Below, piece by piece: positions 17,023-52,444 of a stretch of 64,000 nucleotides of DNA. Below the pieces are notes generated by a model. That model had not been told where the DNA came from. It made no database searches and was given only the letters and a program-made list of their open reading frames with translations. Source of the stretch: a virus. The stretch lies in the UHGV virus genome UHGV-0293664; one strand, 5' to 3'. Position numbers and translations under genes: made by a program. Numbering within the stretch: the stretch's first letter is position 1; every line of letters begins with the position of its first letter.

Positions 17023-17032
17023 GGAAGCCTAG

Positions 17033-17506
17033 ATGGAAACTCAAATTTTAACTCCTTATGCGTATGACCCTAAAAAGGTCAAACTGTATCTGATGCAGCA
17101 GCGTGTCACTGGCTTCGCTGCTGACACCAAGATTGTTGTTTCAAGAAACGAAGACAACATTTATCCCCACGTCGGTGTGGATGGCGAAATGTCTGCAGCT
17201 CTGTCCCGTAACCAATCTGGTGTTATGACTGTATCTTTGCAGAACACTTCTGTATGGAACGCTTACCTTTCTGACTGGCAGAAACAGGCATCGATTACTG
17301 GCCTGGTATTCTTCCCGGTTCTGCTGGAAGGTAGCCAGGGCCCTGGTATTTCCACAATCGGTTGGATCCAGAAACAGCCTGACCTGACTTACGGAACCGA
17401 AGTAGGTCAACTGGACTGGGATATCGGTATTCTGGATGCATGGCTCAACCGTGATAACATCACTGGTGCTCTTACTGGCCTCGCAGGTCTTGCAGGTATT
17501 ATCTAA
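17033..17506 (+). CDS. tail tube / major tail protein (candidate)
   Basis: 157-aa ORF directly before the chaperone genes, followed by a terminator. Confidence 0.4.
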   Translation: METQILTPYAYDPKKVKLYLMQQRVTGFAADTKIVVSRNEDNIYPHVGVDGEMSAALSRNQSGVMTVSLQNTSVWNAYLSDWQKQASITGLVFFPVLLEGSQGPGISTIGWIQKQPDLTYGTEVGQLDWDIGILDAWLNRDNITGALTGLAGLAGII

Positions 17507-17523
17507 GGGCACACTTTAGCATA

Positions 17524-17555
17524 AGCCTCACCTTCGGGTGGGGCTTTTTGCTTTT
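17524..17555 (+). terminator. intrinsic terminator
   Basis: gcctcacc-ttcg-ggtggggc followed by tttttgctttt. Confidence 0.65.
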
Positions 17556-17596
17556 ATGGTTTTGACACACGTTCTTGAATTGCTTGAAAGGTTAAA

Positions 17597-17625
17597 TTGA
17601 CAATGCACAATAATCATGGTAAAAT
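17597..17625 (+). promoter_or_regulatory. sigma70-type promoter with extended -10 (TTGACA-N17-TGgTAAAAT)
   Basis: TTGACA 17597-17602; TG 17617-17618; TAAAAT 17620-17625. Confidence 0.6.
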
Positions 17626-17668
17626 ACACAAATATGGTGCACAACATGACTAATAAGGATGCTATAAA

Positions 17669-18142
17669 ATGGCTATAAACTTTAGACCTACAACAGAGAT
17701 TGATTTAGCAGGGCACAACTTTGTGATCACCCACTGGGGACCGATGAAAGCAATGAAAAACATGCCTAAAATCGGTAAGATTGTGGCTGTCCCGCTAGGT
17801 GCTATCGGCGGATCTATTATCTCAGGCGGTCAGAACATGGCAGAAGTCCTTCCTACTGCTCTGGCTTACCTGTTCCAAGAACTTGATGATAACTCTATTG
17901 AAGAGTTATTTAAAATTTTGTTCGAAGATATTACCGTAGATGGTGTGGATAAGCTTAACCCGGATGTTGTGTTTGCAGGGCATCTGCTGGAGATGATTAA
18001 GCTGGCAGGTAAGGTTCTGGAGGTTAACTACGGCTGTTTTTTCACACAAGACGGTTTAGGAAGCCTTCTGGAGATGTTACAGCAGATGGGTATGATTCAG
18101 CAGGTGAACAACCTGGATCAGACTCCGGAAGAGCAGGAATAA
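17669..18142 (+). CDS. tail assembly chaperone (gpG-like, zero-frame product)
   Basis: 157-aa ORF directly upstream of the tape measure gene; contains slippery heptamer T_TTT_TTC. Confidence 0.6.
   Translation: MAINFRPTTEIDLAGHNFVITHWGPMKAMKNMPKIGKIVAVPLGAIGGSIISGGQNMAEVLPTALAYLFQELDDNSIEELFKILFEDITVDGVDKLNPDVVFAGHLLEMIKLAGKVLEVNYGCFFTQDGLGSLLEMLQQMGMIQQVNNLDQTPEEQE
18037..18043 (+). other. -1 programmed ribosomal frameshift slippery site T_TTT_TTC
   Basis: Heptamer is in X_XXY_YYZ register with the chaperone frame (codons tgT TTT TTC = C F F); the -1 frame is open from here to 18402. Confidence 0.55.
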
Positions 18143-18402
18143 GCAAGGTTGTTGTGAGGGCCAGTGAGTGGGCAGCCAAGAACAGTTCACTCAACTGGTT
18201 CGACTTTCTTTGGTGCAGGGTGCTCAAGAATTTCAAAGGGGAAAATTTTGAATCGCTAAATCTTGCAGATATGGCGTATTTCCTGAAGCTCTGTGAGTAT
18301 CTTGATATCGAAGAATTCCTAGATACCGTCCAAAACAGGGAAATGGAGCGGGAGCAGAAGGCTGCCGCAGCTGCTGCGAAAGCTAAGCGCAGGAGAGGAT
18401 AA
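18043..18402 (+). CDS. tail assembly chaperone frameshift extension (gpGT-like; fusion product about 244 aa)
   Basis: The -1 frame has no stop between 18043 and 18400; the track ORF 18154..18402 is its tail; position matches the conserved G/GT arrangement before the tape measure. Confidence 0.5.
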   Translation, partial: HTRRFRKPSGDVTADGYDSAGEQPGSDSGRAGISKVVVRASEWAAKNSSLNWFDFLWCRVLKNFKGENFESLNLADMAYFLKLCEYLDIEEFLDTVQNREMEREQKAAAAAAKAKRRRG

Positions 18403-18456
18403 TCTAAGGGCCGGATTCCTTTTCTGGGATCTGGCCCTTTTTATTATGAGGAAACC

Positions 18457-20793
18457 ATGGCTACAAACAAAATAGTTGCCACAACAGTCAACAAGATTGG
18501 CTTTGAGATAGAGAACTCCTCCTACAAAAAAGCTGTAGAGAAAATTCGCAGTATTGGGAGGGAGTTCAGGAAACTGGGCGAAGATTTTAACTCAGCCAAC
18601 CCCATGAGCAGATGGCAGGCGGTAGCTGTTAAAACCCAGCAGACAATGCAGCGGGTTGCCAGACAGCAATCTCAGGCAAATGCTAAACTGCACAGAGAGA
18701 GCGTAGCACAGGCCAAGAAAGAGGCTGCAGTAAGGGCTGCAATAGAACGTAGGGAGAATGCGAGACGTAAACAAGCTGTAGGTAATCTTACCGCTAAAAA
18801 TCCAGAAATGGCTAGGATGCGTAAGTTCTACCAGCAGCAAGCTAAAGAGGCCAAAAAGGCTGCCAAATCTGCACCAGTGTCTTACGGTGGTTATAAGGCA
18901 CCTAAGGCAAGAGTTTTGGCTAATGCCAAATCTTTCAAATATATCCCCGGTAACCCTAATATGGGTGGTGTGGCTTCCGACCCTAACCTTGTGAAAGCTC
19001 AGACAGCCGCTATGAATCGTTATCATAGACAGCTAAGAAGAGACAGTAAAGCTGGTATGGATAATAAGCTTATGTCGGATCGTGAGGCAAGGAGAACCCA
19101 CCTCTACAACTCCGCGATAAGACTTTCTGCCAAGTATGGGGCCGGATTCCGTGGAAGCTTGCCAGGATACTCAGAGTTAGAGTCCAGGTTTGCTCGCGGG
19201 GAGATGAAGAAGTCAACCTTTAACGCCCACCTGTCAGCGCTGCAGTCTGGGTTTAAAAGCGCCACCAGCCAAACGCTTACACTAGGTGATGCCATGAGAG
19301 ACCTACGTAGATCTGTTATTAATGCAACAGCTGCGTATACGGCTTTTTCTGGATTTGCTGCGGTTAACAGATCCGGTCACATGATGGAGGGGGCAAGTGC
19401 TGCTCTTACTGCTGTTACTGGAGATCCAAACAAAGCCAACAGTGAGGTTGCGTTTGTCCAGCAAGAGGCTATGCGTCTTGGTTTTGATCTCAAATCTGGT
19501 CTTCAAGGTTACGCCCAGATGTCGGTAAACGCCAAAAACCAGATGACAAATCAGGAAGTGCATGAGCTGTTTTCTGCATACTCACAGTATGCTGCTGCTT
19601 ATGGTGCCGATGAGGTAAAATACCAGCGCGGTATTATGGCTATCCAACAGATGCTAGGCAAGGGACAAGTAATGTCCGAAGAACTGAAGCAACAACTTGC
19701 TGAAGCATTGCCCGGTGCATACGAACCTTTTATCAAGGCCACCAAAGAGGCTTTTGGTCTTTCTGAACTCTCCATGGATCAGTTCATGGACATGATGAAG
19801 AAAGGTGAGGTTAAAACAGCCAAGATCATGAAGTATGTGGCTAAGTACATGAACGAGGCATCTGCAGCTGGTTATGAAAGAATGCAGAAGTCTAACGTGC
19901 TGGCAGAAAACAGACTGAAAACCTTCATCGAACTGACTCGTCAGAAACTGTTCACCCGTTGGTCCGACGAACTAACAGAGTTCTATTATACACTAATCCG
20001 CACTGGTGAGACTCTGCAATTTGTGTGGGATGCCTCTGGTGATTTTGTTAGCGGGTTTGTGAGAGGCCTTAACTGGGTAGTTGGTGAACTAAACAACACC
20101 ATAGTCAAGATCCGCATGTTTTTCCTTGAATGGGGGATTAAATGGGGATTCATAACAGCTAAGACGAAGGAATATTCTGAAGAGCTTCATGACACCTTTA
20201 GTTATGCTAAATGGGCAGGGTTTGCTGCTGCCATTATGCTGGTAGTGAACGCCCTAACAAAAGGTTTTGTCATGGCATCCATGCTTGTAAAAACCTTTAA
20301 ATTCCTTAACTCTCTAAGGGGTGCAGCCGGAGCAGCGGGTGCCGCTACTACAGAAGGATCTGGTGGTGGTGCTCCGGCAGGAAAAGGGGGAGGTGGCCTC
20401 AAGACACCTGGTGGCAAAGTTGGTCTGCTCGGTAAGTTGGGCATTATCGGTACAATACTAAGCGCCGGGGAATTGTTTAATGACCGTTACAACCCACTAA
20501 GTGAAAGAAATCAGCAGCTGGATACCATCAGTGATATGATTCGTAAAGATATCATATCTGGAGGTAACGGGTTTGTTAATCCTTTGGACACCTTACCGGG
20601 AGGGACTCTTCCGTTACCAGGTGGTCCTGGTTTTGCTTCTCAATTAAGAACTATGGAAATGCTGCCTTTAGAGATCAGTGATGGGAAAATCACGATTTCA
20701 ATAGATGAGGGTGAGTTTAACAAAATATTTGATGCAAAACTGGAGTGGGAGAACAATAAAGATATCAACTTCATGTCTACCGACCTTTGGTAA
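18457..20793 (+). CDS. tail tape measure protein
   Basis: 778 aa; follows the chaperone pair; long helical Ala/Lys/Gln-rich stretches and Gly-rich hydrophobic segment GAAGAAGAATTEGSGGGAPAGKGGGG. Confidence 0.65.
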   Translation: MATNKIVATTVNKIGFEIENSSYKKAVEKIRSIGREFRKLGEDFNSANPMSRWQAVAVKTQQTMQRVARQQSQANAKLHRESVAQAKKEAAVRAAIERRENARRKQAVGNLTAKNPEMARMRKFYQQQAKEAKKAAKSAPVSYGGYKAPKARVLANAKSFKYIPGNPNMGGVASDPNLVKAQTAAMNRYHRQLRRDSKAGMDNKLMSDREARRTHLYNSAIRLSAKYGAGFRGSLPGYSELESRFARGEMKKSTFNAHLSALQSGFKSATSQTLTLGDAMRDLRRSVINATAAYTAFSGFAAVNRSGHMMEGASAALTAVTGDPNKANSEVAFVQQEAMRLGFDLKSGLQGYAQMSVNAKNQMTNQEVHELFSAYSQYAAAYGADEVKYQRGIMAIQQMLGKGQVMSEELKQQLAEALPGAYEPFIKATKEAFGLSELSMDQFMDMMKKGEVKTAKIMKYVAKYMNEASAAGYERMQKSNVLAENRLKTFIELTRQKLFTRWSDELTEFYYTLIRTGETLQFVWDASGDFVSGFVRGLNWVVGELNNTIVKIRMFFLEWGIKWGFITAKTKEYSEELHDTFSYAKWAGFAAAIMLVVNALTKGFVMASMLVKTFKFLNSLRGAAGAAGAATTEGSGGGAPAGKGGGGLKTPGGKVGLLGKLGIIGTILSAGELFNDRYNPLSERNQQLDTISDMIRKDIISGGNGFVNPLDTLPGGTLPLPGGPGFASQLRTMEMLPLEISDGKITISIDEGEFNKIFDAKLEWENNKDINFMSTDLW

Positions 20794-20802
20794 TAAACTG
20801 TG

Positions 20803-20828
20803 CAGGGGGCTCTGGCCCCCTTTATTCT
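20803..20828 (+). terminator. intrinsic terminator
   Basis: gggggc-tctg-gccccc followed by tttattct. Confidence 0.6.
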
Positions 20829-20835
20829 ATCAGTG

Positions 20836-20864
20836 TTGTAAAAACGGCTATTTTATGATACAAT
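20836..20864 (+). promoter_or_regulatory. sigma70-type promoter with extended -10 (TTGTAA-N17-TGaTACAAT)
   Basis: TTGTAA 20836-20841; TG 20856-20857; TACAAT 20859-20864. Confidence 0.5.
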
Positions 20865-20897
20865 ATTTAGATGGTATCGGAGTGTCCTGGAGAGGTT

Positions 20898-21782
20898 ATG
20901 CAAAGTAATATAGTTGATGAAAAAGACCTGTACAAGCCTCGAGAGGTTAAATCTCCAAAGGCTGAAAAGGCAGAGCAGCAAACCGAAAGCGATGTAAAGT
21001 ACACTATGTTTGTCAGCGGTCTTAACTATGGCGGTCGCAACATAGAGATGAAGGGTAAAAACTTTACTAACGATCTTGCCATTATCTTCGATCAGGTTGA
21101 GAACTACTCTTTCAAACATTCTGTTGATAAGACGGGGTTTGCGGTGGAAGATAAATCTACCCTGTCAGACCACGCTGTAATTAAAGATGGTGTATTTTCT
21201 TTTACTGGTAGGGTAAATACATCTCCACATATAATCTATGAGCAAAACTACATCGATAGGAATACTGACTCTAAAAACCCTGCAGCATCTATGCGACCAA
21301 GTGCTGCACTGGAGGCTTTGACTGAGATCATTAATAAGCGACAGTTGGTTTCTTTGGTTACCGAGGAGAGACTTCTTGAGAACTACATCATAACCAGTCT
21401 TTCTGCCAGCAAGTCTGTTGGTGAAGGTGCTGCAATGGTTTTTGATGTAGAACTTACGGAGTTCCGCACATTCTACTTGAACAAGGTTGTTAATGCAACT
21501 GTATACAGCAATCCCAAGAAAGTAGGCAAGACTCAACAAAAAGGTGCTGTCAACGATTGTAAGAATGGCAGTAACGTAGGTAACAAGAGAGACACAGGGG
21601 CATTTGCAGACACTGCATCCACAAATGCTGCAGAGGAGTGGCAGCCATATAAATCTATGATGTGGACAGATGAAAACGGTGTTACCCAATCGGCTGCGGA
21701 TTGGTATTATCAGGAATATGGAAGACCTTCTACCATAGTCCCATCTGAGCAGGGAAACTACGACAAAGTTAACGGGAAATAA
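20898..21782 (+). CDS. hypothetical tail/baseplate protein
   Basis: ATG at 20898 after RBS GGAGAGG; first gene after the tape measure. Confidence 0.35.
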   Translation: MQSNIVDEKDLYKPREVKSPKAEKAEQQTESDVKYTMFVSGLNYGGRNIEMKGKNFTNDLAIIFDQVENYSFKHSVDKTGFAVEDKSTLSDHAVIKDGVFSFTGRVNTSPHIIYEQNYIDRNTDSKNPAASMRPSAALEALTEIINKRQLVSLVTEERLLENYIITSLSASKSVGEGAAMVFDVELTEFRTFYLNKVVNATVYSNPKKVGKTQQKGAVNDCKNGSNVGNKRDTGAFADTASTNAAEEWQPYKSMMWTDENGVTQSAADWYYQEYGRPSTIVPSEQGNYDKVNGK

Positions 21783-21793
21783 GGGGGCGCATA

Positions 21794-22174
21794 ATGGAGC
21801 TTAAAGATTGGTGCATAATCACCTTTGTGTGGGACATTGACGGCTTTCCTGATCAAACCATGCGTGTTGTTTTAGACAATGAAACGTATGAAATGCGTAT
21901 GCAATGGAATGAGAGGGATGAGTCCTGGTGGTTATCTCTTGGTCCAGTAGGTGACAGCCCTTTAGTAACCAGAAAAGTAACAGCTTGTCAAGATATTTTA
22001 GACGGACTGCATTACAGGGATGATTTACCGAAAGGTAGACTAATGGCGCTGTCGTTTAAAGACGATCAATATTGGGGCAGGGTTGGAAGATATAACCTTG
22101 GGGCAAGATCTGAGCTACAACTTGTATACGGCACCCCGGTTGATCTTTACAAGGAACAGCAAGGGTTAGAATAA
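21794..22174 (+). CDS. hypothetical tail/baseplate protein
   Basis: 126-aa ORF with start/stop coupling to neighbours. Confidence 0.35.
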   Translation: MELKDWCIITFVWDIDGFPDQTMRVVLDNETYEMRMQWNERDESWWLSLGPVGDSPLVTRKVTACQDILDGLHYRDDLPKGRLMALSFKDDQYWGRVGRYNLGARSELQLVYGTPVDLYKEQQGLE

Positions 22175-23178
22175 TGGCAGAGTACAGACGTAGAACATGG
22201 CGATTATTGTTTGGTCGTCCGGTAGAGCATGGTGGTAAATCAAAAACCAATATCCCAAAATCTGTTGAAAAGAAAGGGGAGAGTGATTCCGGAGTTTATG
22301 AAGTTAGCTCAGACACTGGTGCTGCCAATATAGAGTTTGACATACAAAAGGACAATACCAAAGAGCCAAACAAAGGTTATGTGACAGTTTACAACCTGTC
22401 TGACGATACAGTTAACTATCTGGATATGCATCAGGCTGATGCCCTTGCAGTTATGTTTGAAGCTGGCTATGATGATGAGAACCAGTTGATATTCTCCGGA
22501 ACTGTGGAGTTTGTTGAAGACAGATGGGAAGGTCCGACCAGAAAAACTAAGTTCATCTTTGGGGATGGTACTGAGAACATCATTAAGTGCCAAAGCACAA
22601 GATCTTATCAGAAAGGCACACCTCTGAACTCTGTGCTTAATGACCTACTGAAGGATATGAACTTGCCAAAAGGTAGGGTTGTTGGTTTTGGAAACCAGAC
22701 TTTGCAATACTCTATGGCTTTCTCTGGAAACACTGCAGAGAACCTCCGCAGGTTTGCAAGGCTGACCAACTCCACATTTAGCGTTCAGGATGGAGCTTTG
22801 TATTGGACCAAGGTTGGAAAAAGGTTCAAAGACTCTGTGTTTGAAATAAGTGCAGAGTCTGGGATGCACGGATCGCCTACCCCTAAAAACCCAGAACCTG
22901 CTAAAAAACGAAAAGCTAAAGCTGCTGCCAAAGGTGGTTCGACATCTAAAAAGAAAAAGAAAAACCCGAGAGAGGATGTTGGCCTTACTGTAACCACATG
23001 CCTTAACGGAGCTATCCTCCCAGAGTCAACTATTTATCTTAAAAGCAAGCAATATACAGGATTCTATAAGGTAATCACGGTGCATCATAAGGGCACCATA
23101 GAAGGAGGTGATTACACTACAGAGCTTGGCCTTGGGGAAACAGTGGGTGGAGTTGTTGACAAAACTGAGGAGGTATAA
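22174..23178 (+). CDS. baseplate hub-like protein (candidate)
   Basis: 334-aa ORF directly upstream of the spike gene; Lys-rich patch KKRKAKAAAKGGSTSKKKKK. Confidence 0.3.
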   Translation: MAEYRRRTWRLLFGRPVEHGGKSKTNIPKSVEKKGESDSGVYEVSSDTGAANIEFDIQKDNTKEPNKGYVTVYNLSDDTVNYLDMHQADALAVMFEAGYDDENQLIFSGTVEFVEDRWEGPTRKTKFIFGDGTENIIKCQSTRSYQKGTPLNSVLNDLLKDMNLPKGRVVGFGNQTLQYSMAFSGNTAENLRRFARLTNSTFSVQDGALYWTKVGKRFKDSVFEISAESGMHGSPTPKNPEPAKKRKAKAAAKGGSTSKKKKKNPREDVGLTVTTCLNGAILPESTIYLKSKQYTGFYKVITVHHKGTIEGGDYTTELGLGETVGGVVDKTEEV

Positions 23179-23855
23179 TGGCAATAAATAGGAAAGATGC
23201 TGCTGTAAGATCCTTCATAGAAAAAATAATGAGGGACTACCACACAAGTATCAGGGCCAGAGTTGTCAGTGTAGACTACAGTATCCCTTCTGCAGCCGTG
23301 CAGCCAATAGCTGAAACCACGTTTGATGACGGAGATGTGGAGAGATACCCTCTTATCTATGACGTTCCAATTCAGGTGATGTCTGCAAACAGCGGAAAGG
23401 CAAGGCTAACACTTCCTATTAAGGCTGGGGATGTTGTAGGATTGCAGTTTTCAGAGAGAAATGAAAACAATAACGACGATCAACAAACTCACGGCCTGTT
23501 TCCAGGGTGGGCAATCACCTCTGTCCATTCAGACTCAAACGCTTTACAGATTGATCCTGACAACGTAGAGTTATGGAATGATAGGGTTTATTTTAAACTG
23601 ACACCTTCTGGCGATTTTGAGCTTCAAACACCCGGTGGGACATTACGGTGCGACAGCAGTGGGGAGTTTTCTTTCACTAACGGGGCTGCCAATTTGCGAG
23701 CTGCTGTGGATGGAAATATCAGAATGAATGGTGCCACAATAGACCCATCGGGTAGAATTATAACTGCTGCTGGTGTGGATTTGGATTCATTCTATGCAGA
23801 ATATAAAGGTCATACCCACTCTTGCCCTGATGGCGAGACAAGTGGACCGCACTAA
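23178..23855 (+). CDS. baseplate central spike protein (gpV-like)
   Basis: 225 aa; C-terminal GHTHSCPDGETSGP (HxH metal-binding apex motif of gpV-type spikes). Confidence 0.55.
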   Translation: MAINRKDAAVRSFIEKIMRDYHTSIRARVVSVDYSIPSAAVQPIAETTFDDGDVERYPLIYDVPIQVMSANSGKARLTLPIKAGDVVGLQFSERNENNNDDQQTHGLFPGWAITSVHSDSNALQIDPDNVELWNDRVYFKLTPSGDFELQTPGGTLRCDSSGEFSFTNGAANLRAAVDGNIRMNGATIDPSGRIITAAGVDLDSFYAEYKGHTHSCPDGETSGPH

Positions 23856-31706: not shown

Positions 31707-31713
31707 CTGTTTT

Positions 31714-31738
31714 GCCCTCGCTTCGGCGGGGGCTTTTT
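31714..31738 (+). terminator. intrinsic terminator with UUCG tetraloop
   Basis: gccctcgc-ttcg-gcgggggc followed by ttttt. Confidence 0.65.
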
Positions 31739-31745
31739 GTTTGTA

Positions 31746-31774
31746 TTGCGTATTAACTCAAAATCTGGTAAAAT
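31746..31774 (+). promoter_or_regulatory. sigma70-type promoter with extended -10 (TTGCGT-N17-TGgTAAAAT)
   Basis: TTGCGT 31746-31751; TG 31766-31767; TAAAAT 31769-31774. Confidence 0.5.
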
Positions 31775-31805
31775 AGCTATCATGATTGTTTAACCGGGAG
31801 GCACA

Positions 31806-32396
31806 ATGTTTTTATGGGAAAGGCCTAGATACCTTCCAGATATTAGATTGGAGCTGCTGGCAGATATTGTTACGTTTAAAAGTCCGTTTACAGGTAAAAC
31901 GCAAAAAGTAACCTATGCCACACCTAACTGGAAAGGCACTTTGACGGTTTCCAATATCAGTGAGTCACAGTTGCTAGAGCTTAAGAGCTTTGTCGATCAG
32001 GTGTATAAAGATGGGAACATATTTCTTATTAAAACTTACGGTCACTCAGTAACAGCTAATGAGCCAATCGCCCTCGGGCCTACTGGTAACGACGATTTTT
32101 TGAAGACGGTTGGGTGGGAGCCAAACAGAGACATAGCCAGAGCCGGGGATAAAATATCTGTCAATGATGAATTGAAAGTGGTAACAGCTCCAGTGCGTAG
32201 CGATGGTGTTGGGTCTGCTGTTATAGGTATATCTCCAAGACTTAGAAAACCTATTGCCGCAGGGGACACCATGAAGATAATAACTCAATCTCCGAAGGGT
32301 AGGTTTCATATCAGAGATATTTATAAAATTAAGCAAAAAGTCGATGCTATGCAAAAAGGTGATAATATAGTTATCAACTTCTTTGAGGATTTTTAA
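31806..32396 (+). CDS. hypothetical tail protein
   Basis: 196-aa ORF after RBS GGGAGG; first of three short genes preceding the gpJ-like gene. Confidence 0.35.
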   Translation: MFLWERPRYLPDIRLELLADIVTFKSPFTGKTQKVTYATPNWKGTLTVSNISESQLLELKSFVDQVYKDGNIFLIKTYGHSVTANEPIALGPTGNDDFLKTVGWEPNRDIARAGDKISVNDELKVVTAPVRSDGVGSAVIGISPRLRKPIAAGDTMKIITQSPKGRFHIRDIYKIKQKVDAMQKGDNIVINFFEDF

Positions 32397-32949
32397 GATG
32401 ATCAGAGCGCCATTAGATAATTTATTTCTTGAAAAGCTGGAGCTTGATGGTGTTGAGATCTTAATTGCTGCAAAGCTGGAGCTACCGACAGGAACTGTCA
32501 GGGTGTGCTCAGGCACTGGTGTTGTAGTAATTGAGGGGCAACATTTTATAGGGATAGGGGGATCAGCAACATTAACTGCTGTGTCTGAGAAAGATGCCAC
32601 CAACTTCGGATCTGTGGTAGCAACATTAAACGGGTTTGATCCTAAGTATGTGGGTGATCTGCTGAAGACAGAGTATTCTGGTTGTCGTGCCACGTTGTAC
32701 ATTACCGCTATGGAGAATGGTCTGCCTGTCACAACCAATGGCTTGTTTGACGGTCTTATAACAGATATGGCTATTCAGACAGGAGAGAATAGTGCTTTGT
32801 CCATATCCATCTCTTCCATCTTCAACAGCTGGTTAAGAGGTTTTCCTTATCGGTACACTGAGGAAAGCCACAGCTCAAGAAACGATAACGACAGATTTTT
32901 TAAATATGTGGATCAGGTGGCGAGCCGCCCGATCATTTGGGAGGTTTAA
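32383..32949 (+). CDS. hypothetical tail protein
   Basis: 188-aa ORF overlapping its neighbours at both ends. Confidence 0.35.
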   Translation: MRIFKMIRAPLDNLFLEKLELDGVEILIAAKLELPTGTVRVCSGTGVVVIEGQHFIGIGGSATLTAVSEKDATNFGSVVATLNGFDPKYVGDLLKTEYSGCRATLYITAMENGLPVTTNGLFDGLITDMAIQTGENSALSISISSIFNSWLRGFPYRYTEESHSSRNDNDRFFKYVDQVASRPIIWEV

Positions 32950-33374
32950 TGAGCACACATCCTCGTTTAGTGGACTGGCAAGAAAGATTGTGGAAAGTGT
33001 TTGACGAAGAGGCCACCATACCTTTTGAATGGGGATTCCACGATTGTTGCACCTTTGCGGCTAAGTGTGTTGATGCCCAATACGGAACAGATTTTCTTTC
33101 TAACTTCGAAGGAACGTATAAAACAGAGTTGGAAAGCAAGAGATGGTGCATGCTTCATTTCAAAACCACACACCTGCCCACTATTTTTGATTTCTTTATG
33201 ACTCGGCTGGACACTCCTAAACAGGTTCAGCGTGGCGATATTGTTATCTTCAAAGGTCTGAACGGCCTCACAGCTGGTGTGTTCTGGAACAACCAGATTT
33301 GGGCGAAAGGTGATAAAGGGGTCTTTATGTTCGACATGAAAGATTCTATCGTTGTTGATGTCTGGAGGTATTAA
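32937..33374 (+). CDS. hypothetical tail protein with HDCC Cys/His motif
   Basis: 145-aa ORF with FHDCCTF and GDIVIF segments; resemblance to papain-like or NlpC/P60 folds is speculative. Confidence 0.3.
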   Translation: MGGLMSTHPRLVDWQERLWKVFDEEATIPFEWGFHDCCTFAAKCVDAQYGTDFLSNFEGTYKTELESKRWCMLHFKTTHLPTIFDFFMTRLDTPKQVQRGDIVIFKGLNGLTAGVFWNNQIWAKGDKGVFMFDMKDSIVVDVWRY

Positions 33375-36300
33375 TGCCAATTGCAATGATTGATAACATC
33401 GTTGCTTCTGCAAGATCTTCAAGTTATGACTGGAACGCATCCAAGGCAGCTCTGGCTGACAGCCTGAACACTGTTACCACCAGAACTCTGGATAAGATTT
33501 TTGAGGGCAACAAATCTTACAGAAGTCAGCAAGATAGACAAAAGCTTCTCAGATCTTCTGCTGCACCCTGCTCTGTAGTGTATGGGAAGACACGCACATC
33601 CGGATTGCTTGCGTTTTTGGAGCAGGACAGAGACAGAACCCTCCATTGTGCTATTGTTCTTGCCAATCATCCTCTAGAAGGTATAGAAGACATACTCATC
33701 GACGGTAATCCTATTTCCTCGTATGGAGATCTGGTATCGTGGGAGCTACATAACGACAGAAAAACATCTGATCCTTTCATGGGTACACACTGCCCATCAT
33801 GGTCACCTGACATGATAGGTAGAGGGATCAGTTGGCTACGTGCCAGCTTCAGGTTTGACCCTAACAAGTTTCCTTTTGGGTTGCCAAACGTTACACTCGT
33901 TAAGGTTGGTAAAAAATGCTATGATCCTCGCATCAGTAAAGAGGTGTATACCAATAACGCGGCCTTGGTGATTCTAGACTATTTAAGAACGTACCTTAAA
34001 TGTCCTGACGAAACCATCAACTGGGAGTCCTTCAAGGAGGCTGCTAACATATGCGACGAGGCGGTAAAAAACGCAGACGGAACCAGTGAGCGCCGATACA
34101 CCATTAATGGCGAGTTTGACATGGACGAGGCTCCGGCAAGCATTATGGCAGAAATGCTGAAAGCTTGTGGCGCAGATCTCAGCTATGTAGCTGGTAAGTA
34201 TGGTTTGCTGGTTGGTGCATACTATGGCCCGGCAACAATGACGCTGAGTGAGGATTGTGTCTGTGGTGAGGTTAAGATCTATCCGGAAGCCTCGTTTGAC
34301 AAAAGATCCAACACAATAACTGGCAGATTCACCAGTCCGACCAAAGGGTATTCTGAAACAGATTTTCCATCAGTGTTTGTCCCAGAGTGGATAGAGAAGG
34401 ATGGAGAAAGAAAGATAATCGATATAGACTACCGCTTTGTTACCAGCCCTTATCAAGCTCAGCGTGTTTCTGCAATATTTTTAAGACGTGCTAGAGCTGG
34501 CAGGATTATTGAAGTCACCTGCAATATGCGAGGTTTTAAATTTAAACCTGGCCGTTACGTTACAATGAATCTCCCAAGTATTGGTATAGTGGGCCAAGAA
34601 ATGAGGGTTCTTGAGTGGGAGTTCACCAAAAAGGGCGGTGTCAAGGTAAAACTTCGTCAAGATGCTAAAGAGTGGAATGATGCCACAGGGCAACTTCCGG
34701 ATTCTGGCGATGTAGATATTCCGATATCCCCATCCGGTGTAGCTCAACCGCAAAACTTCAGATACTCCGTCCTCCAAGCTGGGGAAATAACTCACGGTGT
34801 TCTGGCTTGGGACAACGTTGGGACTTACGCTCAAAATATTGTGCAGGTAAGAAAGAACGGAGAGATTGTTTGGACAGCACAGACAGTTGAGCAGTTTGTC
34901 CGAGTAGAAGGCTTGACCAAAGGGTCATACACAGCAACCGTGGTTGCAACATCCTATAAAGGTGGTGTATCTCCAGAAGCGTACTGCGAGTTTAACATTC
35001 AGGCACCTGAAGCTCCGGTTTCTGTAGAGGTTAAGCAGGGATATTTCGCTATCACCTTGATTCCGCATAGTAGGGATTTAGCAAGCGTAAGCACCCAGTA
35101 TGACTTTTGGACATCTGGTATGACAAGGTTGCCAGACACCAGTGATGCTACCGTTACTTCAAAAGCCACCCGTATGGGTGTTGGTTCAACTTGGACGTCT
35201 GAAGGTCTCCAGAACGATAAGGTTTATTATTGGTATATTCGAACCACAAACGCTTTTGGTAGCTCTCAGTTTGTAGAATGCGCTGCACGCTGCTATACCT
35301 CTATTGAGGATTTGATGCCTCAGATAGATGCTGAATTCAAAAAGACAGAAACTTATAAAGAGTTGATGAGCACTTTGGATTCCTCTATTGAAGAGGTTGA
35401 AAATCGTGTCACAGAACTTAACAGGTACATGGATGGTAGGGTAGATGAAGCGTTCCAACAACTTGGGGACAGAATAGGTGCGGTAGTTACAGAAACAACT
35501 CAGAAGTTTGAAGATGTCAATGGTAACATTACAGCGCTGGATAGGAAACTTGTTGCTGCACAGAACAAATTCACCAACGATCTGAACACTGAAAGTGGCA
35601 GACTGGCATCTCTGATCGAGACAACCAATAAAGCAACTACTGATCTTCTGAACAAAAAGACAGAGGCTTTAGATGAGAAATTGGTTGCCGCCAAAGGTGA
35701 GCTGGTAGAGCAGATAGAGGGAGTTGAGAGCGGGTATTTAGCCGGAGATAAAACTCTGGATGGTAAGATCAATACTCAGAGAACAGAACTTGACGCAAGC
35801 ATCTTGAGCACTAACCAGGCAACTGTGGATCTTTTGAACAGGACATCTGAAACTCTGGATCAAAAGATCAGTCAGACAAACGCGACGGTATCTAAAAACT
35901 ATACCACCCTGGATGGCAAGATAACCACCGCAAAAACTGACCTCAACACCTTGATTGCCAATACCAACAAGGCCACCACTGACTTGTTGAATCAGAAAAC
36001 ATCTGCACTGTCAGAGCAGATAACTTCTGCACGTGGGGAGATTTCTACCAACAAGCAGGCGATTGATGCTTTGGATGGAAAACTGACTTCCACAAAAACA
36101 GCGCTGGATGCTACAATTTCCGATACCAACAAAGCCACTGTGGACCTTATCAACGGCACAGCGTCAGCTATTCGTCAAGAACTTGCTGTTGCTAAGCAGG
36201 AGATCATTGATGATGTTGGGGATGTGTCCGAGATCAGGGCTGCAGTAGCTACAACATCTAAGGCTGTAACCGACTTGGAGGGTAAAGTAAATGCTCAGTG

Positions 36301-37213
36301 GGGTACAAAAATACAGGTGGACTCCGCAGGGAATAAATATGTTGCAGGTATCCAGTTGGGGATGGAAGGGTCTGGGGGCCAAGTTCAATCCTACTTCATG
36401 GTTAGCGCAAACAATTTTGCGGTATACAACCCCGGCAATGGAACAGCAACCCTTGCTTTCGCAATCAAGAACAACCAAGCGTTCTTGAAAGACGCTTTTA
36501 TAGAGAATGGCACGATCTCTTCTGCCAAGATCGCACAAGAAATTTCGTCAAACAACTACGATGGCAACGGGTACCATAAATACGGTTGGTATATTAACAA
36601 GAACGGGCACGCCCAATTTATGGATGTGTGGGTGAAAGGCAACATCAACGCCAGTTCTGGTAACTTCACAGGGGCAGTTAACGCCACTAGTGGTACCTTC
36701 CGTGGGGATGTTTATGCCAACAATGGTAGCTTTAGGGGCACCATAGATGCAACCGGAGGTACCTTCCGTGGGCGTGTAGAAGCTTCTGTTATCCGCGCTA
36801 ACCAGTTCGAAGGTGCAATTGTTGCACACAGGACTTACGGAGATTGTGCTCCAGTATATAACTCCCGGCAAAGGGTTTGCCGTTGGAGGTGGAGATATGT
36901 GGACAACGTGCAAGGCCAAGGTAAAAACGTAACATTCTTCTTTAAACTGAACGGTACTCGTGCCAACTCTCAACTAAATGCGTGGATAGCTGGTCACCAA
37001 CTACTTGCTGGCAAGAAGTACGGAAACGATAACGATGGCATGTGTGCAGTTGGGATAACAGGTCTAGGTGAACAAACTATAGACATTATTATCGAGATTT
37101 ACACACCATGGTCAACAGGGAACGTGACAGGCATTACAATATCTTGTCCTACAGTCGTTGTAAGTCGTTCTAACTCAAGTTTCCAAGGTCCTTGGAATGA
37201 GTCTCACGACTAA
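33374..37213 (+). CDS. lambda gpJ-like host specificity / central tail fibre protein
   Basis: Segments match lambda J as recalled: GYFAITLIPH vs GYFQITATPH, YYWYIRTTNAFGSSQFVE vs YYFYIRSVNTVGKSAFVE, YVAGIQLGMEG vs YVAGIGLSMED; four tandem coiled-coil repeats. Confidence 0.6.
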   Translation: MPIAMIDNIVASARSSSYDWNASKAALADSLNTVTTRTLDKIFEGNKSYRSQQDRQKLLRSSAAPCSVVYGKTRTSGLLAFLEQDRDRTLHCAIVLANHPLEGIEDILIDGNPISSYGDLVSWELHNDRKTSDPFMGTHCPSWSPDMIGRGISWLRASFRFDPNKFPFGLPNVTLVKVGKKCYDPRISKEVYTNNAALVILDYLRTYLKCPDETINWESFKEAANICDEAVKNADGTSERRYTINGEFDMDEAPASIMAEMLKACGADLSYVAGKYGLLVGAYYGPATMTLSEDCVCGEVKIYPEASFDKRSNTITGRFTSPTKGYSETDFPSVFVPEWIEKDGERKIIDIDYRFVTSPYQAQRVSAIFLRRARAGRIIEVTCNMRGFKFKPGRYVTMNLPSIGIVGQEMRVLEWEFTKKGGVKVKLRQDAKEWNDATGQLPDSGDVDIPISPSGVAQPQNFRYSVLQAGEITHGVLAWDNVGTYAQNIVQVRKNGEIVWTAQTVEQFVRVEGLTKGSYTATVVATSYKGGVSPEAYCEFNIQAPEAPVSVEVKQGYFAITLIPHSRDLASVSTQYDFWTSGMTRLPDTSDATVTSKATRMGVGSTWTSEGLQNDKVYYWYIRTTNAFGSSQFVECAARCYTSIEDLMPQIDAEFKKTETYKELMSTLDSSIEEVENRVTELNRYMDGRVDEAFQQLGDRIGAVVTETTQKFEDVNGNITALDRKLVAAQNKFTNDLNTESGRLASLIETTNKATTDLLNKKTEALDEKLVAAKGELVEQIEGVESGYLAGDKTLDGKINTQRTELDASILSTNQATVDLLNRTSETLDQKISQTNATVSKNYTTLDGKITTAKTDLNTLIANTNKATTDLLNQKTSALSEQITSARGEISTNKQAIDALDGKLTSTKTALDATISDTNKATVDLINGTASAIRQELAVAKQEIIDDVGDVSEIRAAVATTSKAVTDLEGKVNAQWGTKIQVDSAGNKYVAGIQLGMEGSGGQVQSYFMVSANNFAVYNPGNGTATLAFAIKNNQAFLKDAFIENGTISSAKIAQEISSNNYDGNGYHKYGWYINKNGHAQFMDVWVKGNINASSGNFTGAVNATSGTFRGDVYANNGSFRGTIDATGGTFRGRVEASVIRANQFEGAIVAHRTYGDCAPVYNSRQRVCRWRWRYVDNVQGQGKNVTFFFKLNGTRANSQLNAWIAGHQLLAGKKYGNDNDGMCAVGITGLGEQTIDIIIEIYTPWSTGNVTGITISCPTVVVSRSNSSFQGPWNESHD

Positions 37214-37220
37214 CAGTAAA

Positions 37221-37248
37221 GCCCCGCTTCGGCGGGGTTTATTTTTAT
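37221..37248 (+). terminator. intrinsic terminator with UUCG tetraloop
   Basis: gccccgc-ttcg-gcggggt followed by ttatttttat. Confidence 0.7.
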
Positions 37249-37255
37249 GCTCAGA

Positions 37256-37284
37256 TTGACTATTGTTACAAAATTTGGTAAAAT
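37256..37284 (+). promoter_or_regulatory. sigma70-type promoter with extended -10 (TTGACT-N17-TGgTAAAAT)
   Basis: TTGACT 37256-37261; TG 37276-37277; TAAAAT 37279-37284. Confidence 0.6.
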
Positions 37285-37317
37285 ACCTTGTAGAGATTTT
37301 CATACCGGAGGAGTGAC

Positions 37318-38808
37318 GTGGCTAAGTATGGATTGACAGAGGCTGGTTTCGTTATACCAACCCTAAATGACCTAATCGTTGAAACTAAGCAAAGCCTGAT
37401 CCGTGCTTTTGGCGAAAACTTCAACGTACAGAGTAACTCCGTTGCAGATAAGCTGACCACTATCTTCAACGAGCGAGAGTATCAACTTATTCTTATGGCA
37501 GCATCTGTATACGCATCACAGACGCTGTATGGGGCAGAAGGTATTTACCTGGATGAGCTTCTTGGAAGACAAGGTATTTACCGAAGAGGCCGTTCTAAAT
37601 CATCAGGTACCTGCCAGTTGACAATCAACACAACTGTGCCGTACAATATGATTTACGATTCCAAAACTTACACACTGGACAGTGGGAACTTTGTTCTTAG
37701 CAATGACGTGCAGGTAGCGGGAAATCTTATTGCTCATAGGATAAACGCTCCAGATCTAAGAATTGGGAAATACAACTTTCAAATTACCAACCAGACAGAT
37801 GGAAGTATCAAAACAAAAAGTCTGGTTTTAACAGATAAGGCTCTGGACTCTTCTGATCTGCCAAGCTTTTACGGAGAGATTAAGCAGTTCATTGTCGATA
37901 ATACAACCCTGTTGAACGACGATTTGATTCAGATCGATATGTTGACAGGAACGTTGTGGATAGGGTACAATTCGAATCTTGATCAAGTTGGACTTAATAG
38001 TAGAGTAGATTTCAGGGTATCCCCGATTGTAGGGGAAAGAACTATTACCCTGGATGTTATCGCTAACGAGGCTGGTGAGCTGTCAAGAGAGGCAGAAACC
38101 GTGACAACAATGTCGCCTACTCCCAGCGGATTTATCAAACTCACCAACCGAGAAAGATTCAATGAGGGTAGGGATGTTGAGAAAGACTCAGAGTATCGCT
38201 TAAGAGCTTCCAGCACAAAACAGTTAACATCTAAGGCTACCCGTCCTGCAATCCTTAGCGCTGTAAGCGAGGTGAAAGGTGTTGAGAAAGTGAGAGTGTT
38301 CTCCAACAACACCGATAAAACTGATGCTAAAGGTATACCTCCTTACAAGTTCCAAGTGGTTGTGTTTGGTGGTGCAACGGAAGACATTTGCCAAGCACTT
38401 TACCAAACTATAGCCTGCACGAACAGGACTTATGGTAATATTTTCTACGATGTCACTACATCTGACGGTCAAACTGAAAGAATTTATTACTCCAAGGCAA
38501 ATACCTACCGCCTAGATGTAAGAATTACCTACTCCGGTGCTGCGCTTTCCACAACCGAAAAAGATGCCATTACAGAGGCCCTTTTGCATGTTGTTAACGG
38601 ACTAGATGTTGCAGATACGTTGTACAATATCCAATTGGTCGGTGCTGCATCTGCTGCTGTGTCGATAGGCAGATTTAATAGACTGGTAATTCAAGTTAAA
38701 CCAGTAGGAGCTTCTGATGAAGCTTACACTACAAACGATATTGTTGCGAACATGACCGAGGTGTTTGACCTCGACGAAAGTAATATAACTTTCCAACAAA
38801 CTATTTAA
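37318..38808 (+). CDS. baseplate/tail structural protein (possibly baseplate J-like)
   Basis: 496-aa ORF with GTG start after RBS GGAGGAG; by size and context only. Confidence 0.3.
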   Translation: MAKYGLTEAGFVIPTLNDLIVETKQSLIRAFGENFNVQSNSVADKLTTIFNEREYQLILMAASVYASQTLYGAEGIYLDELLGRQGIYRRGRSKSSGTCQLTINTTVPYNMIYDSKTYTLDSGNFVLSNDVQVAGNLIAHRINAPDLRIGKYNFQITNQTDGSIKTKSLVLTDKALDSSDLPSFYGEIKQFIVDNTTLLNDDLIQIDMLTGTLWIGYNSNLDQVGLNSRVDFRVSPIVGERTITLDVIANEAGELSREAETVTTMSPTPSGFIKLTNRERFNEGRDVEKDSEYRLRASSTKQLTSKATRPAILSAVSEVKGVEKVRVFSNNTDKTDAKGIPPYKFQVVVFGGATEDICQALYQTIACTNRTYGNIFYDVTTSDGQTERIYYSKANTYRLDVRITYSGAALSTTEKDAITEALLHVVNGLDVADTLYNIQLVGAASAAVSIGRFNRLVIQVKPVGASDEAYTTNDIVANMTEVFDLDESNITFQQTI

Positions 38809-38819
38809 GGCGGCGAGAT

Positions 38820-39506
38820 ATGGCAGAGATTAAGTCGGATGTTAACCACATCCACACTCTGCCAGATTTTGTTCAGGGAGGTCTTGACTACCTGCCTGGA
38901 GATTTTCTGGCTGAGAAGGTTAATTTAGTCACATTCTTAACCGTGTACCTTAAAAGGTTGGAGGATGTTGATAAGATGCTGGTAGGTTTGGCTGAAGGAA
39001 GATTGCTTAACAATGCCAGCGGAAGATACCTTGACGAGGTTGGTAATCAACTTGGTATTCTTAGGAATGGACTTTCAGATGCTGATTTTCGTGCCACACT
39101 AATTATTCAGCAGGCCGCAGCATCAAGGGGCGGGACTCGCGAAGATGTCATCTCCACCTTGCGACAATTGTTCGGAAGAGACAATTTCGATACGTGGAAA
39201 GGAGACAACTTCCGGTTTGACATAAATATTAGAAAAACTTGCTTTGACATATTGCAGTCTATCGATCAGATCTTAGATATGCTACCATTGCCTTGTCATT
39301 TGCGTCTTACAGAATCGCAAGGGCAAGCTTTTGGTTTTGAAGGGGACTCTACAGCTCTTGGCTTCGGATCAGTGTGGGAAGAAAACCAATTCGGAGTTGG
39401 TGGGCTGGCTACTTTGCTGTATGTTCCTGACGTAAGACCTGATTGGGACACCACAACCATTTATTGTGAAAGTATTACAGTAAACGCAACTAGACAGGAG
39501 GGTTAA
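38820..39506 (+). CDS. hypothetical baseplate/tail protein
   Basis: 228-aa ORF coupled to the flanking genes. Confidence 0.3.
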   Translation: MAEIKSDVNHIHTLPDFVQGGLDYLPGDFLAEKVNLVTFLTVYLKRLEDVDKMLVGLAEGRLLNNASGRYLDEVGNQLGILRNGLSDADFRATLIIQQAAASRGGTREDVISTLRQLFGRDNFDTWKGDNFRFDINIRKTCFDILQSIDQILDMLPLPCHLRLTESQGQAFGFEGDSTALGFGSVWEENQFGVGGLATLLYVPDVRPDWDTTTIYCESITVNATRQEG

Positions 39507-42645: not shown

Positions 42646-43230
42646 ATGAAAATACTTCAAGAGTTTAAACTTTACCAACCGGGATCTGGCGAATACCACG
42701 CCAACAAGGAAACCAAGGAGCTGACCCCTCAAGAGGTTGAGGACTACACCGCATACACTGGGTATTTTTTACGTAATGATGATGGCGATTGGTATGTGCA
42801 GTCACGAACATTACGACAAGAAAATCCGGGTTGTATCTTCCTACTTGTTGACGAGAAAGGAATTCTTAAGACATCTACAGAAGAACCTGATGCCTTATGG
42901 CCTGCTCCAGGTCTTCGTGTGGTTATCGCCAAAAAAGAAGAGGTACCAGAAAACATTATGCTTCACCACGACGCTTTGCGTTTAGTTGGTGATGAATTTG
43001 TCACAGATAATGAATTCTTTGTTCAACAGGCAGAGGGTGTCATAGAGACAGAACTTGCTTGGGCTACTGCTAGACTTGGTGCCTATCAAGACATGATTGA
43101 CCTTGAATATGATCTTACTGATGACCAGAAACGTAACATCAGAGATTTGAAAATGTACAGGGTAAAACTTCTTGAAATAGATACATCTAAAGCCCCTGAC
43201 ATTTTCTTCCCGGAGCGACCTACCCTCTAA
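42646..43230 (+). CDS. tail fibre assembly protein (Tfa-like chaperone)
   Basis: C-terminal LLEIDTSKAPDIFFPERP resembles the conserved Tfa C-terminal motif; sits directly downstream of a fibre gene. Confidence 0.55.
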   Translation: MKILQEFKLYQPGSGEYHANKETKELTPQEVEDYTAYTGYFLRNDDGDWYVQSRTLRQENPGCIFLLVDEKGILKTSTEEPDALWPAPGLRVVIAKKEEVPENIMLHHDALRLVGDEFVTDNEFFVQQAEGVIETELAWATARLGAYQDMIDLEYDLTDDQKRNIRDLKMYRVKLLEIDTSKAPDIFFPERPTL

Positions 43231-52398: not shown

Positions 52399-52404
52399 CA
52401 AGAG

Positions 52405-52442: not shown

Positions 52443-52444
52443 AA

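Follow-up and report, generated by a model that had tools for sequence, protein, structure and literature searches.

How a gene for a lambda-type central fiber came to lie in the tail operon of a phage with a contractile tail, and what its product might do there, are the questions raised by UHGV virus genome UHGV-0293664, of which we analyzed a stretch of 64,000 nt (the window). The gene in question occupies 33374..37213 and encodes a protein of 1279 aa. The 3.84-kb gene showed 95-96.5% DNA identity to more than 100 phage records (rV5, FFH2, Murica-type, and the BASEL Vequintavirus isolates), and over 44 kb the gene order was that of rV5 and EduardKellenberger, gene by gene; because of this shared identity and order, we assigned the window to an rV5-like member of the genus Vequintavirus. 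Vequintaviruses are myoviruses of Escherichia coli with genomes of 131-140 kb. We proposed, with a probability of roughly 0.6, that the protein, the homologue of rV5 gp37, is the Vequintavirus member of the siphovirus hub/central-fiber family and the product of the last gene of a horizontally acquired cassette, and that it probably serves as an off-axis accessory fiber. The cassette consists of four genes, named here after their rV5 homologues.

31806..32396, plus strand: gp40 homologue, 196 aa, predicted distal tail protein (Dit) of the T5 pb9 type, from fold comparison
32398..32949, plus strand: gp39 homologue, 183 aa, predicted gpL-like hub protein (HDI, tube-like beta-sandwich), from fold comparison; alternative TTG start at 32383
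32949..33374, plus strand: gp38 homologue, 141 aa, DUF6950 protein (Pfam) in the gpK position with an NlpC/P60-like Cys motif; alternative TTG start at 32937
33374..37213, plus strand: gp37 homologue, 1279 aa, ATG start, J-like tail-tip hub and fiber protein, from 98.4% aa identity to rV5 gp37 and J-family matches

The open reading frame (ORF) of gp37 was exactly as an earlier note, made from the sequence alone, had described it, with the ATG at 33374 and the stop at 37213. That note had also likened several segments of the protein to lambda gpJ, and the match proved significant in the Ig/FNIII pair, in the fiber domain and, weakly, in the hub, by Pfam, phmmer, PHROG 31, and hhalign. Phage_Tail_Tip (PF09327) matched aa 957-1097 over the full length of the profile (E 1.2e-38) and Ig_J_second matched aa 547-652 (E 1.4e-30); Ig_J scored 24.7 bits, under its cutoff of 29, and Phage-tail_3 alone was sub-threshold (E 0.11). 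With phmmer, the solved lambda J (8iyk; E 1.4e-28) aligned by residues 666-844 to gp37 497-678 and by residues 844-991 to gp37 957-1116, and PHROG 31, "central tail fiber J", matched across aa 143-1137 (E 9.5e-164). The Pfam hits left out the N-terminal 496 aa, where the hub was assigned from profile matches to T5 pb3 and lambda J. In hhalign, the profile of these 496 aa aligned with lambda J 218-481 (E 4e-6, probability 87%); the T5 baseplate hub pb3 was matched by the single gp37 sequence at E 2.4e-4 and by a 7-sequence profile at E 1.4e-18, profile positions 170-490 corresponding to pb3 421-765. Hub domains HDII-HDIV, the Ig/FNIII pair, and the fiber domain PF09327 were thus all found, which places gp37 in the lambda-J-type hub/central-fiber family. 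A similarity confined to adhesion-type Ig domains was ruled out by the matches in the hub and fiber domains. The protein is not lambda gpJ proper: it scored 153 bits with NCBIfam lambda_TipJ (NF049904), for which the cutoff is 1950, and the LamB-binding C-terminus of gpJ was not present in gp37, the alignments stopping at J 991. The fiber domain also matched the F2-pyocin fiber and the T1 tail-tip fiber. The parts of gp37 were as follows.

33374..33559, plus strand: hydrophilic N-terminal segment (aa 1-62), replacing the hydrophobic Ala/Gly-rich segment of siphoviral homologues
33560..34861, plus strand: hub domains of the lambda J/T5 pb3 type (aa 63-496), from pb3 and lambda J profile matches
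34850..35329, plus strand: two J-type Ig/FNIII-like domains (aa 493-652), from Ig_J (sub-cutoff), Ig_J_second, and the alignment to J 666-844
35306..36253, plus strand: predicted Pro-poor helical stalk with ~52-aa repeats (aa 645-960), from composition, autocorrelation, and weak coiled-coil matches
36242..36721, plus strand: J-type central-fiber domain (aa 957-1116), from Phage_Tail_Tip and the alignment to J 844-991
36764..37210, plus strand: distal tip domain (aa 1131-1279), candidate receptor-binding part, from genus restriction and high divergence

The N-terminus of gp37 departed from that of its siphoviral homologues. All six siphoviral J-like tail-tip proteins opened with a strongly hydrophobic, Ala/Gly-rich segment in the first 45-60 codons; only the first few of these residues were retained in gp37 (MPIAMI vs. 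MPPAII), and the remainder was hydrophilic. The maximum Kyte-Doolittle score over 19 aa was 0.31 in gp37 compared with 1.7-2.2 in the six homologues, and nine charged residues were counted in the first 45 aa compared with one to four. The hydrophilic start was conserved in a divergent Vequintavirus-like lineage. From its position upstream of the first hub domain, the siphoviral segment may correspond, in fused form, to lambda gpI or to the T5 pb3 plug, which have been proposed to plug the lumen and contact the membrane (PMC10721106). No description of this segment in siphoviral J-like proteins was found in the literature examined; in one Vibrio phage record, it is annotated as "TMhelix".

The FNIII pair and the fiber domain are adjacent in lambda J but lie ~316 aa apart in gp37; thus, we interpreted the intervening stalk as an expansion in gp37, where it was also longer than in the nearest siphoviral homologue. 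The stalk contained one Pro in 316 aa, showed autocorrelation peaks at offsets 51-54 and 105, and gave weak matches to coiled-coil families; fully coiled, it would measure ~47 nm. The length alleles of Vequintavirus gp37 (1279, 1199, and 1174 aa) differed in the stalk only. One such difference was a clean 105-aa deletion (aa 816-920), equal to two ~52-aa repeats, and the 1199-aa allele was 43-78% identical within the stalk compared with 96-100% in the rest of the protein. Beyond the J-type fiber domain followed G-x-F-x-G repeats and a Cys-containing tip. When searched with tblastn, the tip domain (aa 1131-1279) was found in 117 records, all of the Vequintavirus type, at 80-99% identity, and it was the most diverged part of gp37, with 86% nucleotide identity to rV5 and a synonymous divergence (dS) of ~0.7 compared with ~0.1 elsewhere in the gene. 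Relative to rV5 gp37, which is encoded at the same locus with the same upstream gp40 to gp38 and has the same length of 1279 aa (98.4% aa and 95.5% DNA identity), the window showed point differences only, clustered in the last 150 aa, where aa identity was 91%; many other Vequintavirus isolates carry the 1199-aa or 1174-aa alleles, which differ in the coiled coil.

For the genes upstream of gp37, sequence searches could place neither gp40 nor gp39, and their identity therefore rests on fold comparison. Neither protein matched Pfam (E up to 10) or NCBIfam, neither lambda gpM nor gpL was picked up by hhalign, and gp40, gp39, and gp38 retrieved nothing significant among solved structures, either as single sequences or as 7-sequence profiles. 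The AlphaFold2 model of gp40 (pLDDT 75.7) returned eleven top Foldseek hits that were all distal tail proteins, including those of DT57C and T5 (pb9), at E 6.6e-9 to 1e-7; its tube-like N-terminal beta-sandwich and second domain are those of a Dit. The gp39 model matched the HDI of T5 pb3, which suggests a gpL-type hub protein with the tube-like HDI fold. Both models were of moderate confidence. Of the four-Cys [4Fe-4S] domain of the lambda gpL type, no conserved Cys was seen in the gp39 alignment, and the window protein has two nonconserved Cys. In gp38, the match was to DUF6950 (Pfam, E 7e-33), a family with an invariant WG..DC motif, a nearly invariant RGD(V/I)V motif, and no invariant His. 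Aligned with lambda gpK by hhalign, these motifs coincided with HGVTDCY and PGDVLL of K in a weak match (E 0.0035, probability 9%), and the top PDB profile hits were to MepS at a nonsignificant E of 0.3. We regarded the gpK-like assignment as likely but unproven and as the weakest of the three; because the family has no conserved His, gp38 may descend from an NlpC/P60 peptidase as a pseudo-enzyme. In the divergent lineage, gp38 was the fastest-evolving gene of the cassette (60% aa identity compared with 75-87% for its neighbors), and it retained the WG.HDCCTFAA and RGD(I/V)VIF motifs.

The region 31806..37213 is thus a tail-tip gene set of the lambda, T5, and gene transfer agent (GTA) type, comprising a Dit, an HDI hub, a peptidase-like protein, and an HDII-IV hub fused to a fiber. 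The mosaicism pointed out in the earlier note for gp37 extends further than was described there, to the three genes just upstream (31806..33374), which belong to the same siphovirus-type cassette. In PY54 and in Seuratvirus KS_A3, four genes come directly after the tape-measure gene; their products are a "distal tail protein" (~195 aa), a "tail protein" (~194 aa), a DUF6950 protein (~135-145 aa), and "central tail fiber J". The four proteins of the window were 33%, 40%, 43%, and 54% identical to the products of four consecutive KS_A3 genes in the same order (gp38 to CDS0020, 43%; gp37 to "central tail fiber J", 54% over aa 48-758) and 29-42% identical to those of the corresponding PY54 genes, and the same four-gene order was observed in siphoviruses of Vibrio, Pseudomonas, Acinetobacter, and Pantoea. 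In the siphoviruses examined (n = 6), the cassette directly follows the tape-measure gene (in Loki, one large gene intervenes), whereas in the window 11 kb separates the end of the tape-measure gene (20793) from the start of the cassette (31806), with myoviral hub, spike, and fiber genes in between. The closest counterparts were those of the Queuovirinae of E. coli (Seuratvirus and Nonagvirus; KS_A3 and ChristophMerian), where the J-like protein is colinear with gp37 from residue 48 at 54% over 711 aa and then at 51% over the fiber domain, and where the same Dit, hub, and DUF6950 genes lie upstream (33-43% identity); the Queuovirinae differ in that the cassette stands right after the tape-measure gene of a noncontractile tail and in that the J-like protein has the hydrophobic Ala/Gly-rich start, a shorter stalk, and a C-terminal tip unrelated to that of gp37.

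The distribution of the cassette was narrow. When the gp37 hub region was searched against the phage collection with tblastn, 117 Vequintavirus-type records matched at 95% identity or more and the next matches fell below 60%; among the latter, every listed record was annotated or sized as a siphovirus, with the Queuovirinae nearest at 57%. The same identity gap for the hub region was seen in IMG/VR. The wedge gene directly downstream had orthologues in Seunavirus (60% identity), in Pectobacterium and Enterobacter phages (49-51%), and in phi92-like phages (32%), and no cassette was present at the wedge genes of Seunavirus SSE121, where the fiber gene is directly followed by the wedge gene; of phi92-like JLBYU50, with only two tiny ORFs between fiber and wedge; or of Septuagintavirus W70, where the wedge gene abuts the sheath-initiator gene. 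The published baseplate inventory of phi92 contains no J-like protein, and the LL12 paper reported that six of seven LL12 fiber proteins are detectable in phi92. These comparisons indicated that the cassette is restricted to one genus, Vequintavirus. On this distribution, the transfer would have run from a siphovirus to a myovirus, and the simplest reading is a single horizontal acquisition from a Queuovirinae-like siphovirus by the ancestor of the genus.

The cassette was bordered on both sides by similar spacers of ~100 bp each (31707-31805 and 37214-37317), identical at 72 of 107 positions (67%). Each copy held a GC hairpin with a T-run, the motif AAAAT(C/T)TGGTAAAATA, and a ribosome-binding site, and a single spacer of this kind was found in SSE121, at the fiber-wedge junction. 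The elements of the two copies were as follows.

31714..31733, plus strand: terminator-like GC hairpin with T-run (8 stem pairs, 7 of them GC, in a consensus scan), right after the stop of the upstream fiber gene (gp41 homologue)
31760..31775, plus strand: promoter-like motif AAAATCTGGTAAAATA (extended -10 type) before the cassette, one of two motif matches in the 64-kb window
37219..37240, plus strand: terminator-like hairpin after the gp37 stop (9 stem pairs, 6 of them GC, in a consensus scan)
37270..37285, plus strand: second copy of the promoter-like motif (AAAATTTGGTAAAATA) before the wedge gene, the other of the two matches in the 64-kb window

The promoter and terminator calls are consensus matches only, and they suggest that the cassette is a transcription unit of its own.

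The surroundings of the cassette were those of an ordinary contractile tail. Sheath, tube, gp27-like hub, central spike, sheath initiator, and Baseplate_J wedge genes lay in one operon (PF10934 Sheath_initiator and PF18352 having been matched in a close relative), and, by their order, the core genes were orthologues of phi92 gp130-138, which have been located in the phi92 structure.

15646..23855, plus strand: contractile-tail core, by Pfam and PHROG, comprising the next eight genes
15646-17022, plus strand: sheath (PHROG 205, E 6e-117; DUF3383)
17033-17506, plus strand: tube (KPP10_Orf10; rV5 gp52 orthologue)
17669-18142, plus strand: chaperone (Pfam/PHROG)
18457-20793, plus strand: tape measure (Pfam/PHROG)
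20871-21782, plus strand: tube initiator (Pfam/PHROG)
21794-22174, plus strand: plug (Pfam/PHROG)
22174-23178, plus strand: hub (Pfam/PHROG)
23178-23855, plus strand: central spike of the phi92 type (PF18352)
37318..39506, plus strand: wedge genes directly 3' of the cassette, a Baseplate_J-type protein (37318-38808) and its partner (38820-39506) (Pfam Baseplate_J, PHROG 6, PHROG 4056)

The sheath-sized gene at 15646..17022, the tube-sized gene at 17033..17506, and the spike gene at 23178..23855 recognized in the earlier note are therefore what their sizes and similarities had suggested. The spike is of the phi92 type, which the phi92 structure paper described as P2-spike-like. The proposed count of at least nine fiber-like or large tail-associated genes also held, with nine starting at 24594, 25264, 27897, 33374, 39506, 41591, 43646, 44977, and 46771. 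The rV5 sheath orthologue gp53 has been seen in virions by mass spectrometry, and the sheath and tube orthologues of rV5 and FV3 have been demonstrated experimentally. That the 458-aa sheath-sized product might instead be a noncontractile major tail protein was ruled out by the PHROG tail sheath match and by the polysheaths that its FV3 orthologue forms; with the gpJ similarity significant as well, the tail module is mosaic as had been supposed, with a true homologue of the lambda J family inside a genuine contractile-tail operon. The description of gp37 as a central fiber did not survive as a statement about position, because the axis is already built by orthologues of the phi92-type tube initiator, plug, hub, and spike.

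Whether the cassette is functional was addressed with substitution patterns. The ratio of nonsynonymous to synonymous substitution rates (dN/dS) of all four genes was 0-0.06 compared with rV5 and EduardKellenberger, and gp40 and gp39 (0-0.02) were as constrained as gp37. All four genes were intact in every record seen, that is, in 117 phage records and in the divergent lineage. In the latter, the organization was the same, the flanking genes were 81-92% identical in aa sequence, and gp40, gp39, gp38, and gp37 were 83%, 87%, 60%, and 75% identical; synonymous sites of the cassette genes were saturated in this comparison. These results showed that the cassette is functional and under strong purifying selection, and a pseudogenized relic was ruled out by the dN/dS values. 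Virion mass spectrometry of rV5 lists gp37 (PMC3606486), and we considered it likely that gp37 is present in virions. In the underlying table (Additional file 5 of PMC3606486), two nontryptic, low-scoring peptides were all the evidence for many of the 19 "detected" proteins, such as gp235, gp237, and gp106, and the rV5 structural-protein list, gp37 included, should be treated with caution. Occasionally, five to six thin fibers of ~70 nm are visible in rV5 micrographs.

In conjunction with the gene order, these data suggest the following scenario. The Vequintavirus ancestor would have acquired the cassette from a siphovirus and placed it between the fiber and wedge genes of an ordinary contractile-tail operon. 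The insertion would have duplicated the terminator-plus-promoter-like spacer and so given the block its own promoter-like and terminator-like elements. In siphoviruses, the tip complex is axial, closes the tube, and opens for DNA exit; the cassette most likely no longer gates DNA exit, because the myoviral tube initiator, hub, and spike already hold the tail axis. Instead, its products would probably build an extra, off-axis trimeric fiber. The head of this fiber would be hub-like, with gp39 probably completing it and gp40 serving as its cap or adaptor, and beyond the head would follow two Ig/FNIII domains, a helical stalk of up to ~47 nm that varies by strain, the J-type fiber domain, and a genus-specific tip that may bind a cell-surface ligand. 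A change from DNA gate to accessory receptor-binding fiber is suggested by the loss of the plug-like segment, the expansion of the variable stalk, and the faster evolution of the genus-specific tip. The trimeric assembly, the off-axis position, and the adhesin role of gp37 are probable rather than observed features. A coiled stalk of ~47 nm together with the hub, Ig, and fiber parts would fit the thin ~70-nm fibers of rV5, which is a size argument only. More tentatively, and with the odds somewhat against it, the whole siphovirus tail tip (Dit ring, gpL-like hubs, and J trimer) may assemble without a tube, off-axis on the baseplate, possibly in six copies. If so, it would be the first case found of a whole DNA-gating tail tip turned into a lateral adhesin, and the loss of the plug segment would mark the change of role.

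Several observations weigh against an accessory fiber built from the cassette. The detection of gp37 in rV5 virions amounted to 5 spectra and essentially one good tryptic peptide, and gp38-gp40 were not among the 19 proteins reported (PMC3606486, Additional file 5). For no Vequintavirus did the searchable literature yield a structure or localization of gp37-gp40, a baseplate structure, or host-range mutations mapping to gp37. Normally, the Dit hexamer docks on the tail tube. No docking partner for the Dit was found in the baseplate, a comparison of the gp37 termini with the window's other structural proteins brought up no common docking motif, and no paralogy with the myoviral hub, below E 0.1, and the wedge proteins carried no extra domain compared with those of the cassette-less SSE121. 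In E. coli K-12, only defects in the lipopolysaccharide (LPS) core and loss of the enterobacterial common antigen (ECA) and the N4 glycan receptor (NGR) have been reported to compromise these phages, with no phenotype assigned to gp37. Finally, a homologue search with gp37 aa 1-700 gave only sequences at least 95% identical, which offered no informative alignment for predicting its structure.

Alternatively, gp37 alone might be structural and form a lateral fiber, with gp40, gp39, and gp38 as nonvirion assembly factors for its folding or trimerization, like lambda gpK. gpK is absent from lambda virions (PMC10721106), gp38-gp40 went undetected in the rV5 run, and gp38 evolves fastest of the four. 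However, all siphovirus tips solved so far contain Dit and the gpL-type HDI protein as structural components in stoichiometric amounts, gpL supplies the hub domain that is missing from J, and gp40 and gp39 are under constraint as strong as that on gp37. The rV5 experiment was also too shallow to count as negative evidence, since the sheath itself gave only 15 spectra, and beyond these data no relevant virion proteomics covering gp38-gp40 was found in the other papers examined. We thus judged a role of gp40, gp39, and gp38 as mere assembly factors unlikely, and preferred the accessory fiber with gp39 and gp40 as parts of its head.

An axial position for gp37 is less probable still. In that arrangement, the Dit, the gpL-like protein, and J would form a coaxial cone under the baseplate that surrounds the spike or lies below it and that contraction would release or open; all known gp37 homologues are axial, the Dit ring is six-fold as is the baseplate, and the RefSeq name is "central tail fiber J". 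In the phi92 structure, however, the tube initiator, plug, hub, and iron-tipped spike lie on the tail axis, and their orthologues fill it here; the hydrophobic plug-like N-terminus of the siphoviral homologues has been lost from gp37, the cassette is 11 kb from the tape-measure gene, unlike in the siphoviruses examined, and the micrographs described in the literature examined show several thin lateral fibers and no central one. Thus, an axial J fiber was considered quite unlikely. The least probable account is that recombination with a siphovirus left the cassette behind as a decaying or selfish element that plays no part in the particle. It could appeal to the lack of an assigned phenotype and to the weak mass-spectrometry support for gp37, yet it is already largely refuted by the selection data: the four frames are intact in all 117 records and in the divergent lineage at dN/dS of 0-0.06, and the proteins stay 60-87% identical where synonymous sites are saturated. 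In addition, promoter-like and terminator-like elements flank the cassette, and at least one confident gp37 peptide was obtained from virions. An off-axis accessory fiber that includes gp37 therefore remained the reading that we favored.

Compared with known tips, the cassette recombines familiar parts. Lambda shares the gene order of Dit (gpM), HDI hub (gpL), C40-peptidase-like Cys-motif gene (gpK), and J (architecture in PMC10721106), and gpJ shares the hub domains (weakly, E 4e-6), the FNIII/Ig pair, and the fiber domain up to J residue 991. The window differs from lambda in the contractile tail, in having no gpI gene, in a gpL-like protein without the four-Cys iron-sulfur motif, and, within gp37, in the ~316-aa helical stalk inserted between the FNIII domains and the fiber and in the missing LamB-binding C-terminus. 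With T5, the likeness lies in the hub of gp37 (pb3 421-765), in the gp40 model (the two-domain Dit pb9), and in the gp39 model (pb3 HDI); in T5, however, HDI-HDIV and the plug form one polypeptide and the fiber pb4 is separate, whereas here HDI is a protein of its own and hub and fiber share one chain. The modules of RcGTA (g12-g15) and of the JBD30 baseplate (Dit, DUF2163 hub protein, peptidase, and J or "megatron") are axial noncontractile tips with sequence identity below 30%. phi92 and phiTE share the orthologous contractile core (tube initiator, plug, hub, spike, sheath initiator, and wedges) and several fiber sets, with the difference that the phi92 inventory has no J-like protein and phi92-like JLBYU50 no cassette.

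Much of this was already in the public record. RefSeq names rV5 gp37 (YP_002003539) "central tail fiber J"; other records of gp37-type genes use "tip attachment protein J" or "host specificity protein J" as well, and for the orthologue in BASEL Bas55-59 the label is "lateral tail fiber protein with fibronectin type III domain". The 2013 rV5 paper had assigned COG4733 and Phage-tail_3 to gp37, which made its J-like nature public, and the rV5 GenBank notes state that ORFs 40, 39, 38, and 37 are each similar to a protein of siphovirus PY54. Since rV5-type phages thus already carry J-type annotations and weak mass-spectrometry evidence from virions, the finding itself (the gene, its J-like annotation, its detection, and the PY54 similarities of its neighbors) is known, and as a discovery it is modest. 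An explicit statement of the complete four-gene tail-tip cassette, of its Vequintavirus specificity, of the duplicated spacer, or of the loss of the plug segment was not found in the searchable literature, and we regard these four points as testable hypotheses that refine the known picture rather than as a new type of system. The BASEL authors stated that it is unclear which genes build which fibers. In this respect, gp37 comes in a set with a Dit and a hub partner that belong to it; the set is genus-specific, has a stalk length and tip that vary by strain, and offers a testable module for fiber assignment and host-range engineering. Few broad-host-range coliphages are isolated as frequently as those of the rV5 type, which are also therapy candidates. 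The cassette is also a clean example of a module moving from noncontractile to contractile tail architecture.

Other features of the window were noted in passing. The gp41 homologue upstream of the cassette (27897-31706, 1269 aa) has a Tail_spike_N domain and, at its C-terminus, a Peptidase_S74 chaperone domain; compared with rV5 it is a mosaic, with 95-100% identity over most of its length and 44-87% around aligned columns 800-1100, and is one of the variable alleles mentioned in the BASEL paper. The genes at 41591-42631 and 43646-44689 are paralogous short-tail-fiber genes (45% identical) separated by a Caudo_TAP-type chaperone gene (42646-43230), a layout already described in the rV5 and BASEL papers. 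At ~52400-59800, the coding strand turns to minus and the GC and AT skews invert; the long structural operon ends here, and in rV5 a bidirectional terminator is annotated at the corresponding boundary. On the minus strand at 56430-57219, three abutting 87-aa ORFs in tandem are the equivalents of rV5 gp14-16; two are 40% identical and the third is 22-25% identical to both, forming a small array of diverged paralogues. Finally, ~18-23 unannotated "Campylobacter phage" GenBank records (MG0656xx, host Campylobacter jejuni) were 95-99% identical to the window and look like mislabeled or contaminant assemblies.

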